Origin: a virus
Direction: 5' to 3' (one strand)
Length of the DNA: 64,000 bases
Virus record (IMG/VR): IMGVR_UViG_3300035694_000001
Span: 31,771 to 95,770 of that record
In this document: piece after piece, positions 11,774-19,019 of the stretch
Layout: each line of letters starts with the position of its first letter
Numbering within the stretch: the first letter of the stretch is position 1
The notes under the pieces: model-generated
Database searches by the model: none
Told to the model about the DNA's origin: nothing
The model's input: the letters and a program-made list of their open reading frames with translations, nothing else
Program-made: the position numbers and the translations under genes

Positions 11774-12175
11774 TTACGCGGCGAGGTGGGCCAGCAGCTC
11801 AGGATTCTGCATCCGCCACGCCGAGATGGCTACCTCAGGTAGCCGACCGCGCTTGGCCAGCGCGTGGCCGTTCGCCTCGGCGTAGGCCCGGACTTCCTGT
11901 CGCTGCTCCTTCGTCAGACCTGAGCCGCCAGCCTCAACGGCAGCCGGGGCACTGGCGGGCTTGTTAGCCGAGCCCTTCGGCCGGCCGCGCTTGACCGCCC
12001 CAGCCGCCTTCCGGCCCTTCTCGAAGTAGACGCCGAGAGCGTCTCGCAGCTCACCATGCTCAGCCTCGGTGAGGTCGATCTCGATAGCCGAGCCATCGAA
12101 GCTCAGCGTCACGCCGTGTGCGTCGGGGGCATCGCTTAGGTCACTCAGGATGTCTACGGTTACCTTCTGCGCCAT
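11774..12175 (-). CDS. lsr2: Lsr2 nucleoid-associated protein
   Basis: MAQKVTVDILSDL..FDG..EIDLT; C-term EVRAYAEANG..KRGRLP AT-hook; AGGAG RBS. Confidence 0.93.
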   Translation of the reverse strand: MAQKVTVDILSDLSDAPDAHGVTLSFDGSAIEIDLTEAEHGELRDALGVYFEKGRKAAGAVKRGRPKGSANKPASAPAAVEAGGSGLTKEQRQEVRAYAEANGHALAKRGRLPEVAISAWRMQNPELLAHLAA

Positions 12176-12468
12176 GGGTGTTTGTCTCCTTTGTGAGTCG
12201 GATTTTTCTGATAAAGCCGTTGATACACCTAATAATATATTCTTGTCAACTCGCAAGGCGGCCCGCGCGGTGTCTAGTTTCTTGCTCGGCCTCTGGGTTT
12301 CCTTAGCCGCTATCGCGTTTCTGCTGGCAGGGACCTTGACGCTAGGCTTCTTGGGCCTAGCGCTAGCCCTTGGCCTCGCTGCCGCCGGTCGGGTGATCTG
12401 GCGGCGAAGCTGGTAGCCTAGCTGTACCGATCCCTACGAGGCCGGTGCGGTGCCTGACAACACCAGAC

Positions 12469-12510
12469 AGAGCAGGGCCCCTAGGTACTCCGACCTGGGG
12501 GCCCTGCTCT
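12469..12510. terminator. hairpin terminator
   Basis: AGAGCAGGGCCCC..GGGGCCCTGCTCT. Confidence 0.65.
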
Positions 12511-12518
12511 TTGCTGTC

Positions 12519-12824
12519 TTACTCTCTCTCAGGCAGAGCTACCGGTCCTTCCTCAGGCAGGTGCGCCTTGCGCCATGCCTGATTTTTCGTCTTGCCGACC
12601 GCTGCGCCGACGCGCGCCCAGACATCTGAATTTTGTGGTCGGTACTCCTGGTAGAGCCCGTGGTAAAGAGCCCTCAGCAGATACGGTGCTCGGGCTACAA
12701 GCTCTTCCAGGTTCGTCACAGCTTTGATCAAATCAGTTTCTCGATCATCACCTAACTCCCCTAGCACCTCACGCAGTGCATCGCTCTCCACGACGCCGTA
12801 CGACACCACGTCTGGTCTGTCCAC
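12519..12824 (-). CDS. small HTH-type regulator divergent from the transfer operon
   Basis: VWARVGAAVGKTKNQAWRK HTH-like motif. Confidence 0.55.
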   Translation of the reverse strand: MDRPDVVSYGVVESDALREVLGELGDDRETDLIKAVTNLEELVARAPYLLRALYHGLYQEYRPQNSDVWARVGAAVGKTKNQAWRKAHLPEEGPVALPERE

Positions 12825-13046
12825 TCGGTGCTTCTCCTATCTCCTGCAGGTTTGCATGGTCAGGGGCCCCAGTATGGCCTATCTAGTTGCAATTTCGCAA
12901 CCGAAACTCTAGGCTGTCGAGCACGGCGCCCTAGGGGGTGCCCGGCCAGTCGTCGGCCACGACAGGCCAGCCGCCTGGGATGTGCTCAGTCCCCGACCAT
13001 CCCAGGCGGCGCCACCACAGGGGACAGGTAGGCAGGGCTGGTCTGG

Positions 13047-13937
13047 ATGACCACCGATCTCACGGCGTTGCAGCTCACCCGGCAAAAGGTCAATACCGGC
13101 ATCTGGATTTGTGCTGCCCTAACCATGACTGCTTCGGCGATTTCGGGCGTTACGGCTTTTGTCTACCTGCAAAAAGACGGCTGGGGCATTGCTTCTGGGG
13201 CCATGACTGCCCTTGCGGTTGATGTCGCGCTGTGGGTGGCCTTGACCGGTGACCGGTTGATGGAAGCTATCGGCATCCCTTCTGGCCCCTGGGCTCGGGT
13301 AGTGCGCTGGGGCACGGCCGCGATGTCGGTCACCCTCAACATCACAGCGGCGGCCGTGGCCAACATCCCGGTTACGCTCAAAGTCCCACTGATCATCCTG
13401 CACGCCTTCGTACCGCTGATCATGGTGTCGCTGGCCGAGCTGCGCGGCGAGTATGCACAGCAGCTGGCGCCCGTCGAACGCGCGGCTCTCGCAGAGATAG
13501 AGGCCCAGGAGCGAGCTGCTGATACCCCGATCGTTGCGCCATCCGAGCGAATCTCGGCTACTAGCGACCAGCTCGAAGCTCTGGGGCCGGCACTCGAAAG
13601 ATCACAACGTCCGTTGGATCTAGGGCCCGCAGTTCCAACGGTAACGCCGTTTGCTTATAGGTCTGAGCACGTCGACAACCAATTTGCTCGCCCACGCTCT
13701 GACCAGCGGAAACACACTCGATCTTCTCGAGGACAACGCCCTGACCTGCGGGTTTCCACGCCGACTGGCCAGCCGGCTGTGCGCCGCTCGAACGTGCGAG
13801 ATGCCGCGTTCGCCTGGCTCGACGCTCACCACAGCCCCGACACCACCGCACGGAAGCTCGCCGAGGCCCTCAACGGATCCGAACACACCTGCAAAAAGTT
13901 GCTCGGCGAATGGCGCCGGCAGAAGGCGGCATCATGA
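13047..13937 (+). CDS. multi-pass membrane protein with C-terminal HTH (Spd/DUF2637-like plasmid spread protein)
   Basis: Four hydrophobic N-terminal segments with LAVD and HAFVP motifs, C-term ARKLAEALNGSEHTCK; stop overlaps the traB start. Confidence 0.65.
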   Translation: MTTDLTALQLTRQKVNTGIWICAALTMTASAISGVTAFVYLQKDGWGIASGAMTALAVDVALWVALTGDRLMEAIGIPSGPWARVVRWGTAAMSVTLNITAAAVANIPVTLKVPLIILHAFVPLIMVSLAELRGEYAQQLAPVERAALAEIEAQERAADTPIVAPSERISATSDQLEALGPALERSQRPLDLGPAVPTVTPFAYRSEHVDNQFARPRSDQRKHTRSSRGQRPDLRVSTPTGQPAVRRSNVRDAAFAWLDAHHSPDTTARKLAEALNGSEHTCKKLLGEWRRQKAAS

Positions 13938-16030
13938 CAATCACAGATATTCGACAGTTTCCTGAGGATCGTGCCCCCTGGTGGCGACGGTGGTTTGACC
14001 GCCAGCAGCCAGAAGCTCAGTACGGCGACGTAGTGAGCACTGAGGTAATCAAATGGGAAGGCTCGCCGGAGGAAGAGCCGAAGGGTTGGGCCTGGGTAGA
14101 AAAGCACGCGGTAAGCCTGCCGGACAAGCGGGCGGTCAAAGCCAAGCTCAAGCACGCGGCATCCAAAATGCCTGGCATCCTCGCCAAGCACATACTCGTT
14201 ACGATTCCTAGAGGTATGTGGGCTGAGGTGGTTCAACCCACCTGGCGCGGCGCCGGCAAGTGCATGACGGCATATCACCACTGGGTTACCGCGATCCATC
14301 TCGATGAAGCGCAGAAAGTAGCTGAAGGACCCCTCAAAGCTCGCACGTTGAAAGATCGACACAGCAGCCATGGGTACCGCATCTGGGCCTCGATCATCGC
14401 TGTGCTGTCGGCTGCCGGCGGCATGACGTACCTCTACTACACCCAGCTCAACTACTTCTTTGCTGTCCTTATTGCCCTGGTTTGCATCCTCGATCTGATC
14501 GGCCGAGCCGGGCAGGAGAAGAAAGAAGAGTTTGTGCCGATCTACCGGGAGCCTCTCCGAGAGGGGATGCCCTACAAGCAGCTCACCGCGTCGATACAAA
14601 GCGCCTTCAACGAAATCATCGGGGTAGACGGCAACGGACACCCGTTGGTGCGAGTGGATGGCATCTGCTCATATGACTTCGATCGTGAAGAGTGGCGGCA
14701 GAATCTCTCCACTTTCCAAGAGATCAAAGAAGAGCATGTGCGGACACTGGAGCGGTCTATTGGCGCGGCACTTCGCTCGGTTCGCATCCTTGAAGTACCA
14801 GCCGTTGCCACTCGGCGGATTTTGAGCATCAAAAATGGGGATCCGTTCGTTGATGTTCCTGTGGCGCCTTGGCTACCAACCAAGTCGCAGAATATCGCAG
14901 ATGGGCTTCTCCTTGGTAAGTCCCAGACTCCGATGCCGTACCGGGTGCATTTCGCCGGTGTGCATGTTGGTGTAGTCGGTGGCTCTGGTAGCGGTAAGAG
15001 CGAGGGCACTATTAGTGCGATTATCGAAGGAATACTCTCTTGCTATAATGCTGTGCCGGTTGGTATTGACCTTACTGAGGGGCCAATTTTCCCGATTTAT
15101 GGTGACTGCATTCAGCGAGTCGCTTACACCCCGGAAGATGCGGACACACTTCTTGACTGGCTGCTTGCCGAGATCAAAGAACGTGCCAAGATTCTGGGCG
15201 ATATCGCGCGCAGCAGTGACCCTAACGATAAGGGCCGCGAATGGAATGTTCACCTTGCTGCGAAGTACAACAAGCCCAGTGTCCATCTCATTGTGGACGA
15301 ATCCCCACAGGCGATGAAATTTAATGGGCAGCCGAAGGGTACCATCAACCTTGCCGCTAAGCTGGAAGTAATCGCACGTACGGGCAGCAAGCATTGGGTG
15401 ACCTTGGTTCTCGCCTCCCAGAAGACCGGCAAGTCCGATGCCGGCAGCACTGGTATTTCTTCACAGATCATGACTTGGCTCGTCGGCCCTTGCACCCAAG
15501 ATGATGCTAATGAGATCTTCTCACCAGAGTTGCGGCGGGCCGGTTGGGCGCCGAACCTGCTTAAACCCGCCGTTCGGAACATCTCGAAGAATGATGCCGG
15601 GCGTGTTTATGTGAGCGCCGCTGGCTTTGGCCCTGACATTTGCATTAGCTGGACGCCTATGCCAGAACCAGAAATCAAACGTCGGCGAGACCAGCGGCTG
15701 ATTGATGGGTTGCCTCGCATTACCAGCGGGGTTGGTTTCCCTGGGGACAGCAATACCGTAGAAGGCAAAGTAGTGCCGAATACCCTTTCAGCCTTGGCCG
15801 CCGCGCTCGATGATATTGAGCCCCCGGACGGCAAGCTGCCCAGCGCCATGGCTGCTGAATGGATCACTGAGCACAGCAATCAGGAAGTCGACGCCACGGA
15901 GCTGGCCAAGCAGCTGCGCGCCGAGCTGGGTGACCTCGCGCCGAGGGCCAAGAGCATGCGCAACAAGCTGCGAGGCAACTGCTCTTGCTACCTCGCAACC
16001 GACATCAACGACGCCATGGAGGCGCTATGA
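13934..16030 (+). CDS. TraB-like FtsK/SpoIIIE-family DNA translocase
   Basis: Two TM helices, Walker A GGSGSGKS, Walker B LIVDE, LVLASQK motif, C-terminal helical domain. Confidence 0.85.
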   Translation: MTITDIRQFPEDRAPWWRRWFDRQQPEAQYGDVVSTEVIKWEGSPEEEPKGWAWVEKHAVSLPDKRAVKAKLKHAASKMPGILAKHILVTIPRGMWAEVVQPTWRGAGKCMTAYHHWVTAIHLDEAQKVAEGPLKARTLKDRHSSHGYRIWASIIAVLSAAGGMTYLYYTQLNYFFAVLIALVCILDLIGRAGQEKKEEFVPIYREPLREGMPYKQLTASIQSAFNEIIGVDGNGHPLVRVDGICSYDFDREEWRQNLSTFQEIKEEHVRTLERSIGAALRSVRILEVPAVATRRILSIKNGDPFVDVPVAPWLPTKSQNIADGLLLGKSQTPMPYRVHFAGVHVGVVGGSGSGKSEGTISAIIEGILSCYNAVPVGIDLTEGPIFPIYGDCIQRVAYTPEDADTLLDWLLAEIKERAKILGDIARSSDPNDKGREWNVHLAAKYNKPSVHLIVDESPQAMKFNGQPKGTINLAAKLEVIARTGSKHWVTLVLASQKTGKSDAGSTGISSQIMTWLVGPCTQDDANEIFSPELRRAGWAPNLLKPAVRNISKNDAGRVYVSAAGFGPDICISWTPMPEPEIKRRRDQRLIDGLPRITSGVGFPGDSNTVEGKVVPNTLSALAAALDDIEPPDGKLPSAMAAEWITEHSNQEVDATELAKQLRAELGDLAPRAKSMRNKLRGNCSCYLATDINDAMEAL

Positions 16031-16127
16031 GAACCACAACGTCCGGCTCAACGGACGAACCCCTAGGGCTCAACCTTCAACGCTTGTTGAACCCCCCTGT
16101 TGAAGGCCTGGCGGGCTCTAAGACTCC

Positions 16128-16257
16128 TGGGGTTGTCCGGGTATCCGTGCAGGGGTCGAGGGGCCCCAGGGGTCATCAGCAGGGGTACTCAGCAGGAGGG
16201 GTCAAGGGGTCATGCACGTCTGGGTAGGGGTCTTGCTGTTCTTGGGGGCATGGGGTC
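16128..16257. repeat. clt-like cluster of AGGGGTC direct repeats
   Basis: AGGGGTC at 16151, 16168, 16197, 16205, 16226; variants at 16128, 16159, 16181, 16251. Confidence 0.65.
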
Positions 16258-16418
16258 TTCACATCTGGAACAAACCCTATGTGACCTGCTCACACTGTGG
16301 AGGGTCAAAGCGTGAGTACGCCGCAGACGGGGTGCACTTCAGCGAGGAGGAGTGCTTCTGGTGCTACGAGAACGGCTACCGCTACCGCTGGGAGTTGAGG
16401 TGGTTGACCCTCTTCTAA
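16212..16418 (+). CDS. small TM + CxxC zinc-finger protein of the transfer module
   Basis: Hydrophobic N-term, PYVTCSHCGG..CFWC. Confidence 0.6.
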   Translation: MHVWVGVLLFLGAWGLHIWNKPYVTCSHCGGSKREYAADGVHFSEEECFWCYENGYRYRWELRWLTLF

Positions 16419-16426
16419 ATGACCCC

Positions 16427-16465
16427 CTGTCGAGCTTGACAGGTGCCTAGGTGTCCGGCTACGTT
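16427..16465 (+). promoter_or_regulatory. promoter TTGACA-18-TACGTT with CTGTC-N6-GACAG palindrome
   Basis: 16427-16444 is the exact reverse complement of 11691-11708. Confidence 0.65.
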
Positions 16466-18038
16466 GTTACTAGGTTCCTAGTATGTTGAAGATCGGAGAA
16501 GCCATGAAGCTCAGAATGCCCGTTATCGCCTATGCGGTAGCTCGTACCGGGGCGCGTCGAGTGATCACTGCCTTGGGGGCCTTGGGCCTCAACGTCCGGG
16601 ATAGCTTCGTGGGCCTCGGCAGCAACGTCCGGCCCTGGAAGCGCGCGGCCATGTGGATCTGCCTTGCCCTGAACTTGGTGCTTGCTTTTGCGCTCGCAAC
16701 GCGCGGCAACGTCGTGAGCTTCATGGCCTTGCTCGGCTGCTGCACCGCTCTTAACTACCTCGACAGCACGATGCCCAGAAAGGTTAGGCCATGACAACCA
16801 TCGTCGATGCCCGCTACCACGAGGTGCACTGGTCGGGCGCCCTGGGTGATGCTCCTATCACCACTAAGCTCTATGGCAGCGCCCAGTTCCGCCCTTTCAA
16901 AATCAATGTCCGATACCGTGCGACTGCGGGTAAATGGGAGGCTGAGTGCGCCGAGGTGGCGGGGCCTCAGGTGAAGAAAGATGGAACCCAAGGCAAGAAT
17001 TGGATCACCTCTGAGTACTGGTTTGACCTTTCTGAGGATGTCCCTCAGTGGATAACTGATATCGCAGCTACTTACCTTCCTAGGATTAAACCATGAGCAG
17101 AATCGTCCGAGTGATCGTGCACCATGTACTAGAGGTCGATGTTGACCGCCTGATTGATGATTGCGAGATAGGCGAGAATCTCGACGTCGACACTGACACA
17201 CTAAGCGACGGCCTAGCAGCGGATCACGTTGCCGGATTCTTCGACCCAGACTGCTGCATTCCCCGATGGGCGCGTGATGGTGTGCGTGTGATGACCAGCG
17301 ATGCCCAGGAGGTAGAAGATGTCTGACAAGGTTCGCAGCATCATGCAGGTAGTCAATTCCCGCGACCAGCAAGCTGTGATTGTTGTGGAGCGTGATCTCG
17401 CTTCAGGAATTATTACGCTAACTTCTACCGAAGTGTCAGATATGCGGGTGTACACGGAAATATCCACGCTGTCTGAGACGAATTACGAAGAGACGCGTAG
17501 CCCATGGGTAACTGACTTCAACGAGGCGAAGGTGCCAAGTGATGTCTGACGCCATCACGTACCCAGCCCCTGAAAAGGACGAGACCGGCGCCGAGTACTG
17601 GGAGCGGGTACGGCAGCTTGGCCTTCCTTTCCCTTGGGAAGCCGATCGATCACTGCCGCCGGGCGAAGTTAAGGTAATTGAGGAGTGGGCTAACAAAGAT
17701 TCTTCTACCGGCAACTATTGGCCCTGCGACGAAGCAGCAGTAAAGCGCACTGCCGCCAAGGTGGCGAGCTGCACAGTCATGCGGCGGATTCGTTGGGAAT
17801 CGGCTGGTCCTTGGGAAGAGGTGAGCTGAGCCATGGGATTTTGGACTGGCGATTATGGACGAGCAGATCAGTACGTTAATGGAGCCGCTGCACAGAATGG
17901 GCACTATAGCGTAGATACGCACGTTGCTCGGCAATGCCAAGACAGTGATAATAAGAATCAACGAAAGGATCGTGTCACATCAGCAGTGCACGACGCGGTA
18001 CAGAAAACTTCAGGGCTTTTAGACTGGTTGAGTAAATA

Positions 18039-19019
18039 ATGATGGGTCACGGGCACGGCTCCTTCGGCCTCTTCGCTGGCCTCGCTGTCGGAGATGCTCT
18101 GTCCTTGCCGCCGGCTGCCGTGATAACCCTTGGCCTTGCTAGCGCAGGAGCCGGGTTGCTGCCCGATATCGACTGCAAGGGGTCCACGGCCGCTACCGCT
18201 TTCGGCCCGTTCTCTCAGTTTGCGCACTACGGTGCCATCGAGCTGCACAATGTCGTCTCAGCCTCGATCAGCACTGACCGGCATGAGCACGGCGCGCACC
18301 GGGGCTTAACCCACTGGTGGCCTTTCTGGGTGGTGTGCGGTGGCGCTGTGTGGGCTCTGTGCACGATCAACCAGTGGGTTGTGATGGCGGTGCTGGCCCT
18401 GCTGTTCGCGCTCGCAGCGCGGGGCCTCACTATCCCCGATCTGCCAGCCGAGACGCAGGGTCGTTTCAACAACTCTCCCCGCCACCACATGATGATGAAA
18501 CTCGCCTACGGCCTGCTCAATCTCAACCCCTTTACCTTCATCATGCGGCGCGGCCGGAAACACGTAGCCAAGACGCGGCGCCTCGGCTGGGCACGGTTGG
18601 GTTTCCGGTTTGGCGTCGGCAAGGTCTTGACCGCAGCGGCGGCCAGCGCACTGGCTTACGGACTCGTAGCGGCCGGCGTCGCAGCCACCATCGGTCCGTG
18701 GCTCGGGCTCATTGTTGGCCTGGGGATGGCGTTGCATTGGTTCGGTGATTGCCCGACGCATATGGGTGTTCCTGGTATTAAACTTCATCAAGTGTGGAAG
18801 CTTCCGTTTTGGGCTTCATTCTATGCCGGCGGTCCGTTCGAGATCATGGCCATCTGGTTCAGCCTCGGGTGGCTCAATATCGTGTTGATTCCCGGACTAC
18901 TCAGCCACGCACATGAGATGACCGTGTTGATTTGGGCAACTTCTGCACTCGCAGTACTGATAGTCCTTGCTATCATTGTTGAAGCAACTAGTGTCGTTAA
19001 ACGAAAGAGGTACGTATAA
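18039..19019 (+). CDS. YdjM-like membrane metal-dependent hydrolase
   Basis: MGHGH, LLPDID, HRGLTH and HWFGD..T..GVP motifs; multiple TM segments. Confidence 0.85.
   Translation: MMGHGHGSFGLFAGLAVGDALSLPPAAVITLGLASAGAGLLPDIDCKGSTAATAFGPFSQFAHYGAIELHNVVSASISTDRHEHGAHRGLTHWWPFWVVCGGAVWALCTINQWVVMAVLALLFALAARGLTIPDLPAETQGRFNNSPRHHMMMKLAYGLLNLNPFTFIMRRGRKHVAKTRRLGWARLGFRFGVGKVLTAAAASALAYGLVAAGVAATIGPWLGLIVGLGMALHWFGDCPTHMGVPGIKLHQVWKLPFWASFYAGGPFEIMAIWFSLGWLNIVLIPGLLSHAHEMTVLIWATSALAVLIVLAIIVEATSVVKRKRYV

Follow-up and report, generated by a model that had tools for sequence, protein, structure and literature searches.

Why would the genome of a tailed phage carry a membrane-anchored DNA translocase resembling those of conjugative plasmids, with a cluster of short direct repeats behind its gene? 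This question is raised by a locus in the IMG/VR virus record IMGVR_UViG_3300035694_000001. The stretch analysed here, referred to below as the window, comprises 64,000 nucleotides (bases 31771–95770 of the 95,770-bp record, which has a completeness rating of 100%), and coordinates are those of the window unless the full record is named. The whole module spans 13047–16430; its core is a two-gene operon encoding an integral membrane protein with about four transmembrane (TM) helices (hereafter the 4-TM protein) and an FtsK/TraB-type ATPase, followed by an array of AGGGGTC-type repeats. The initial annotation, made from the sequence alone, had taken this locus for an apparently intact TraB-type conjugation system. 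That wording proved too strong: what the data show is a phage that encodes a TraB-like pump and has next to it a candidate cognate repeat site.

Architecture of the ATPase

The ATPase gene (13934–16030, + strand) was characterized by AlphaFold2 (AF2) modelling, Foldseek, NCBIfam and phylogenetic trees. The longest open reading frame (ORF) spans 13910–16030 and encodes 706 aa; its Met9 (ATG at 13934) is invariant among 14 homologues, and therefore the protein is 698 aa long, the length originally given (residue numbers below count from the 706-aa ORF). The sequence contains a Walker A motif, GGSGSGKS (K363), and a Walker B motif, DE (D463/E464). The 116-sequence alignment A2 shows no variation at K363 or E464 and at least 90% conservation at D463; in alignment A4, all three residues are invariant. 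TM helices are present, as the initial annotation had noted, but hydropathy and a helical hairpin in the AF2 model place the two of them at ~158–200 and not at the extreme N-terminus.

The AF2 model, built with 116 relatives (pLDDT 89.5), consists of long helices at 73–200 ending in the TM hairpin, an alpha/beta FtsK-type motor at ~220–600, a linker, and a C-terminal winged helix at 624–705 with the element order H-S-H-H-S-S (helix, H; strand, S), the topology of which had a pLDDT above 95 in the full model. Among solved structures, the best Foldseek matches were the FtsK motor (4e-16), followed by TcpA (1e-14), a conjugation coupling protein, and then by EssC/EccC and HerA. The isolated C-terminal domain retrieved almost exclusively winged-helix DNA binders in Foldseek, with weak scores (E ≥ 0.17) and no FtsK-gamma specifically; a Pfam FtsK_gamma match was also absent from the ATPase. 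At the sequence level, a PHROG match annotated “FtsK/SpoIIIE-like” was found (2e-9), and the best curated match was the NCBIfam model plasmid_TraB (NF041214; E 8e-7), which was likewise the best match for 30 of 69 relatives. Searching the PDB by sequence turned up no more than a marginal match to HerA. Taken together, these results indicate that the protein is very probably a membrane dsDNA translocase.

Two other roles were considered and set aside. A packaging ATPase was rejected because a large terminase is already encoded in the genome and because of the membrane anchor of the protein, and assistance in DNA injection was rejected as unlikely in view of the position of the gene in the middle of the genome (46–48 kb of 95.8 kb).

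The repeat array downstream of the ATPase gene

The array, a candidate clt-like loading site, lies at 16127–16257 and contains 8–9 co-oriented AGGGGTC-type repeats on the + strand. Between 16151 and 16257, five exact AGGGGTC copies and three copies with one mismatch, all on the + strand, occupy ~110 bp. The dense cluster reported initially was thus borne out: nine matches with at most one mismatch fall within 141 bp, as against 0.38 expected from the window-wide rate, and elsewhere in the 95.8-kb genome no 150-bp stretch holds more than two GGGGTC. Beyond the array, the + strand has 21 copies of GGGGTC and the - strand 19. The word therefore shows no genome-wide strand skew, which argues for a single-locus site and not for a distributed one of the type of the FtsK-orienting polar sequences (KOPS).

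The run of eight copies begins 120 bp past the stop codon of the ATPase gene (16030), in a spacer of 181 bp, and runs into the start of the next gene (16212–16418, + strand), where it covers the ribosome-binding site and the first codons; the latter hold two repeat copies. As judged from its translation, this gene encodes a zinc-ribbon protein of 68 aa with a hydrophobic N-terminus and a CxxC...CxxC motif. Just past it, an inverted repeat copy is located on the - strand (16421–16427), and inverted copies are also found in relatives. Scans of the spacer for promoters, terminators and Rfam families found nothing.

Co-variation of the repeat word and the winged helix

Comparison of the locus with three related phage contigs, L004, L011 and L005 (ATPase identity 73%, 61% and 51%, respectively), demonstrated a common gene order: an Lsr2 gene and a small gene, both on the - strand, the 4-TM gene, the ATPase gene, the spacer, the zinc-ribbon gene, and a further YdjM-like gene. 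The L004 locus stops short of the two leftward genes. The zinc-ribbon protein is 79%, 70% and 57% identical in L004, L011 and L005.

The spacer array is present in all three relatives, and its word differs between them: GGGGTC in L004, GGGGTAC/GGGGTAT in L011, and G(A/G)GTACTC in L005 (the GAGTACTC lineage). The inverted copy past the zinc-ribbon gene drifts as well, reading ATACCCC in L011. Within the zinc-ribbon gene, the residues V-G-V-L encoded by the array copy are kept, and their codons follow the word of each lineage through synonymous exchanges (GTC to GTA for Val, TTG to CTC for Leu and GGG to GGA for Gly). Such synonymous tracking indicates that selection acts on the DNA word itself.

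The winged helix of the ATPase changes along with the word. In L004, whose word is the same as that of the window, winged-helix identity is 84% and motor identity 79%. In L011 and L005, where the word has changed, winged-helix identity falls to 57% and 49%, with motor identities of 76% and 61%. The C-terminal block of the 4-TM protein that resembles a helix-turn-helix (HTH) is almost invariant in all four loci while the word differs, which makes it a poor reader of the variable word. In L005 (8050–8166), a 9-residue insertion in the wing of the ATPase was observed alongside the changed, palindromic repeat word.

Phylogenetic position of the ATPase and arrays on plasmids

The 14 close homologues of the ATPase (45–88% identity) are all metagenomic, and a profile search recovered 1088 proteins at E ≤ 1e-3. 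On plasmids, tblastn found only seven matches, all from Streptomyces or Kitasatospora, including a 701-aa protein of an S. olivoreticuli plasmid with 31% identity over 272 aa. At E ≤ 1, tblastn matched 88 cultured phages, all of them Streptomyces phages of the cluster-BE type, in which the gene is annotated “FtsK-like DNA translocase”; at E ≤ 1e-5, neither tblastn nor blastn returned a cultured phage for the ATPase or the 5-kb region. When genome contigs were scanned with the family alignment, no relative of cellular origin turned up, and nothing was found in scans of viral contigs with two mid-distance family members. On the motor-domain profile, Jay2Jay gp111 scored 341 bits and three plasmid proteins 251–314 bits, while pIJ101 Tra reached 94 bits and both E. 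coli FtsK and pZL12.71c 74 bits.

Trees were built with FastTree (156 rows) and IQ-TREE (61 rows), the window-side clade comprising ~78 rows; E. coli FtsK was the sole chromosomal representative, and actinobacterial chromosomal FtsK and EccC were left out. In both trees, the window clade was sister to the plasmid TraB-like proteins and Jay2Jay gp111 (support 93 and 95), and E. coli FtsK was placed outside and distant. In addition, giant proteins of 2300–2900 aa (P0114, P0118, P0161 and P0164) were seen to hold four to six tandem copies of the motor domain.

The plasmids of the sister clade also have short-repeat arrays, situated in the ~200 bp directly 3' of the TraB-like gene. The words are CTGTTCC (four copies), CCGGAAC (four copies) and CCGTCCG (three copies), with shuffle p values of 0.007, 0.007 and 0.07, respectively. 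These arrays are unannotated and were located at L008 6129–6334 (CTGTTCC/CCGGAAC), L014 5114–5318 (CCGGAAC) and L007 6150–6338 (CCGTCCG). We regard them as candidate clt loci of three Streptomycetaceae plasmids.

The carrier genome

The 31.8 kb to the left of the window encode an HNH endonuclease, large terminase, portal, maturation protease, major capsid protein, 1299-aa tape measure protein, Dit-like and minor tail proteins, and endolysin. The initial annotation had left room for a plasmid or an integrative and conjugative element (ICE) lacking virion genes; since the genome encodes a full virion, it is not simply either of these. Genes in the window encode an exonuclease, helicase, family-A DNA polymerase, primase-polymerase, DNA methyltransferase and topoisomerase-like protein. 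The carrier is a complete siphovirus. An exact 127-bp repeat is present at both ends of the full record (1–127 and 95644–95770); because 127 bp is a common assembler k-mer length, the repeat is probably a sign of circular assembly and not of physical termini.

No tyrosine integrase, serine integrase or ParB was detectable in the phage genome, and the phage looks lytic. The terminase and portal are 63% and 41% identical to those of Streptomyces phage Samy, the nearest relative for both; the next-nearest terminases belong to 90-kb Gordonia phages, and the next-nearest portals to Streptomyces phage VWB and Arthrobacter phages. This is a lytic-looking phage lineage without a cultured member. An Lsr2-like nucleoid-associated protein encoded to the left of the module (11774–12256, - strand; Pfam Lsr2 5.6e-13, Lsr2_DNA-bd, PHROG 1223) confirms that the host is actinobacterial. 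Its gene is the conserved left neighbour of the module and is syntenic in L005 and L011.

The membrane partner and flanking elements

The 4-TM protein (13047–13937, + strand, 296 aa) was described from hydropathy and a family alignment. Its stop codon overlaps the ATPase start as ATGA, with the ATG at 13934, so that the coupled two-gene operon of the initial annotation stands. Hydrophobic segments were found at ~21–39, 47–66 and 99–134, and two conserved blocks stand out in the family alignment, a membrane block at the N-terminus and one of ~50 aa at the C-terminus. As to the proposed HTH, the C-terminal block gave a weak, sub-threshold match of the KfrA_N type (E 0.017–0.13) in three of four family members. 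The protein matches PHROG 25954, of unknown function (4.6e-9). Its neighbours in the ESM Atlas include DUF2637 clusters (0.89–0.90), which we treat as a lead only.

The divergent intergenic region upstream of the operon (12825–13046) contains a perfect 13-bp inverted repeat (12970–12982 and 12998–13010; GCCGCCTGGGATG N15 CATCCCAGGCGGC), which may serve the operon as an operator or as a leader hairpin. A promoter scan of this region called no sigma-70-type promoter. The small divergent gene beyond it (12519–12824, - strand, 101 aa) has homologues in the same place in L011 (67%) and L005 (33%). It had been taken for an HTH gene, which was not confirmed: no Pfam, PHROG or NCBIfam match was obtained, and neither an HTH nor a GntR domain was recognized. 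Between this gene and the Lsr2 gene lies an 18-bp inverted repeat with 94% complementarity (12469–12510), a candidate bidirectional terminator.

On the right, directly 3' of the zinc-ribbon gene, a hairpin (CCTGTC-GAGCTT-GACAGG, within 16425–16470) is kept in L004, L011 and L005. Its 3' arm overlaps a promoter-like TTGACA-N17-TACGTT, for which the consensus scanner made no call; this promoter-like element likely starts the next transcription unit (16483 onward). Farther downstream, the YdjM-like membrane-bound metal-dependent hydrolase (18039–19019, 326 aa) is 79%, 62% and 58% identical in L004, L011 and L005, and has no match in cultured phages at E ≤ 1e-5.

Proposed function and alternative explanations

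The combination of architecture, phylogenetic position and array layout suggests that the TraB-like pump loads at the array and moves phage DNA to neighbouring compartments or cells, a reading drawn from sequence comparisons that we prefer but would place just short of probable. According to this scheme, the operon would make a membrane-anchored, presumably hexameric, FtsK/TraB-type dsDNA pump and its integral-membrane partner. The C-terminal winged helix of the pump would recognize the AGGGGTC array 3' of its own gene, as TraB and TraA do with clt. The pump, loaded on replicated phage DNA, would then translocate this DNA through the membrane or a septal pore, and infection could pass from a hyphal compartment or cell to its neighbour without a virion, either within the mycelium or in a contact-dependent manner. 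The separate parts of the scheme differ in strength. Architecture, catalytic motifs, phylogenetic position and the conserved array with its co-variation are observed, whereas binding of DNA to the array, the hexamer, the pore and the part played by the 4-TM protein are inferred. That the array is the loading site of the ATPase appears somewhat better than evenly balanced. Virion-free spread of phage DNA as the purpose of the system is a tentative suggestion and on the doubtful side. The full proposition, in which the replicating genome of a virulent tailed phage would travel through septa or contacts without virions, driven by a TraB-like pump of its own with a co-evolving repeat site, should be regarded as doubtful. 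Because the phage looks lytic and has no integrase or ParB, “conjugation” would here amount to infecting the neighbour.

Several results weigh against transfer by a TraB-like system. The Pfam FtsK_SpoIIIE score of the ATPase (18.3 bits) is under the gathering cut-off of 24, and NF041214 gave 27.9 bits against a cut-off of 800, which none of the 69 relatives comes near. The designation TraB is drawn from architecture and from the sister relationship to Streptomycetaceae plasmid proteins far from E. coli FtsK, and not from the curated model. Moreover, the experimentally studied pIJ101 Tra, like pZL12.71c, falls outside the clade in the trees, and the annotations of the plasmid proteins in the sister clade go no further than “hypothetical” or “FtsK.” The term Spd-like applied to the 4-TM protein is likewise backed by its architecture and not by homology: Pfam DUF2637 was not matched at E ≤ 5, and comparisons with pIJ101 SpdB and two plasmid proteins in the DUF2637 position by BLASTP, hmmsearch and hhalign were negative. 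A GntR regulator of the kil-kor type is not present at the module. The co-variation of winged helix and word is a comparison of four loci, and an array was not found after the ATPase gene of L006 (35% identical) or of Jay2Jay. Finally, a mycelial host is an assumption drawn from the nearest relatives, the terminase and portal being closest to those of phage Samy, and the benefit of such transfer to a lytic phage is conjectural.

The best-surviving alternative, which we nevertheless consider unlikely, concerns the array itself: the repeats might control transcription or translation, for example as operators of a further phage DNA-binding protein or as a leader of the zinc-ribbon gene, and the ATPase would act on host DNA or cell division as a host-takeover factor. 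The overlap of the array with the ribosome-binding site and first codons of 16212–16418, and the inverted copy after this gene, would fit such a role, as would the cluster-BE homologues and L006, which have the ATPase without the array; PHROGs, in addition, class such genes as “moron / host takeover.” On the other hand, the scans of the spacer gave no promoter, terminator or Rfam family, and the same layout of gene followed by array is found on plasmids. Furthermore, it is the winged helix of the ATPase that changes with the word, while the HTH-like block of the 4-TM protein stays near-invariant across differing words.

The same pump could also work at division or sporulation septa, moving the phage genome into prespores or daughter compartments and thereby producing a carrier state in spores. 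FtsK/SpoIIIE relatives do work at septa, reviews list phage ftsK among possible manipulators of development (PMC10117723), and the architecture and sequence-specific site would suit the movement of one particular DNA in a set direction just as well. However, the nearest non-phage relatives are plasmid proteins of the transfer type and not chromosomal segregation FtsK, and we judge spore loading to be distinctly unlikely.

It is very unlikely that the array represents replication iterons, or another cis site of DNA metabolism, that lies beside the ATPase gene by chance. Iterons typically take the form of short direct repeats between genes, and the pWTY27 iteron has 7–8-bp repeats (PMC3583192); but no initiator gene adjoins the array, the exonuclease, helicase, PolA and primase-polymerase genes are 15–30 kb away, and the position 3' of the translocase gene is common to the sister-clade plasmids. 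Least probable of all is a device for superinfection exclusion or defence, in which the membrane translocase would keep out or push back entering DNA and the repeats would mark self DNA or serve otherwise: membrane FtsK/HerA-type ATPases do occur in defence systems and weak HerA matches were obtained, but these are marginal (E 0.0076–0.64) and far weaker than the structural matches to FtsK and TcpA, no defence family was indicated in the searches made (PADLOC was not among them), and the module is conserved and syntenic in the early/middle region of four related phages.

Should transfer by the TraB-like pump be the true function, a lytic phage would have a second, receptor-independent route of transmission, and current views of plaque dynamics, receptor-set host range and the containment of phages in mycelial bacteria would have to be revised. 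The pump–site pairs would also serve as orthogonal tools for DNA transfer in actinomycetes.

Comparison with known systems

Conjugative Streptomyces plasmids need one FtsK-like protein, which binds the direct repeats of clt (PMC3583192, PMC4447253). In pWTY27, TraA has 688 aa and two TM helices, and clt consists of 16 bp within traA and the following 159 bp, with four 7-bp direct repeats (PMC3583192). pJV1 has nine 9-bp repeats, and in pSVH1 TraB, helix alpha-3 within its C-terminal winged helix reads 8-bp repeats (PMC3583192, PMC4447253). The phage module resembles these systems in several respects. Like the TraB/Tra/TraA proteins of Streptomyces plasmids (~650–770 aa), its translocase is a single membrane-anchored FtsK-like ATPase that has two TM helices and ends in a winged helix. 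Short direct repeats (7–9 bp in the plasmids) are situated at or just past the 3' end of the translocase gene, and the naming of the repeats as clt-like is sustained by their placement, which is that of pWTY27 clt and of the related plasmid arrays. A gene for a membrane partner lies upstream, with overlapping stop and start codons; SpdB2, described in PMC4447253, is the spread-protein reference for such a partner with ~4 TM helices. In contrast to the plasmid systems, the phage module is found on a virion-encoding, apparently lytic genome, with no Rep/Int and no GntR regulator of the TraR/KorA type. The ATPase also departs from plasmid TraB in its score on the curated model (27.9 bits) and in a clade that excludes pIJ101 Tra, and its partner in having no detectable SpdB/DUF2637 homology. 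Since the curated threshold, the GntR regulator, detectable Spd homology and residence on a plasmid or an actinomycete integrative and conjugative element (AICE) are all lacking, we do not file the ATPase as a strict member of the TraB family.

The closest plasmid counterparts, NZ_CP129916, NZ_CP115453 and NZ_CP107912, share with the phage a sister-clade motor (31% over 272 aa) and an array directly downstream. In these Streptomycetaceae plasmids, unlike in the phage, the TraB-like gene follows an operon of GntR, small genes and DUF2637. Among phages, Jay2Jay gp111 of cluster BE is a membrane-anchored sister-clade relative in a lytic Streptomyces phage; it differs in its low identity (~25%) and in having neither a 4-TM partner upstream nor an array downstream. 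Chromosomal FtsK/SpoIIIE provides the best solved motor match, and its C-terminal winged helix recognizes short words of DNA. The phage ATPase, by contrast, has no FtsK_gamma, a word clustered at one locus without skew and a different N-terminus, and is distant in the trees.

Partial precedents for such a system in phages exist, as the initial annotation had anticipated for plasmid-phages. In pZL12/phage ZL12 (genes 71c–73c), 71c encodes an FtsK/SpoIIIE-like protein and lies next to a gene for a membrane protein; pZL12 itself, a plasmid-prophage carrying ParAB, is temperate (PMC4487206). However, with 74 bits on the motor profile 71c equals E. coli FtsK and stays far short of the 250–340 bits of the sister clade; it represents a distant lineage of tra protein, and no array follows it. 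Thoma et al. (PMC4447253) suggested that the SpdB2 homologues of actinophages phiC31 and VWB might help to spread phage DNA, and actinophage reviews list phage ftsK among genes that possibly manipulate development (PMC10117723). FtsK-like genes are already annotated in lytic Streptomyces phages, and translocase genes of this kind are widely annotated in actinophages with no role assigned, the one studied case being the temperate pZL12. Against this background, the new observation, as far as sequence comparison can indicate, is a lytic-looking, uncultured phage lineage that carries a pump and keeps with it a plasmid-style candidate recognition site, which appears to change in step with the DNA-binding domain of that pump.

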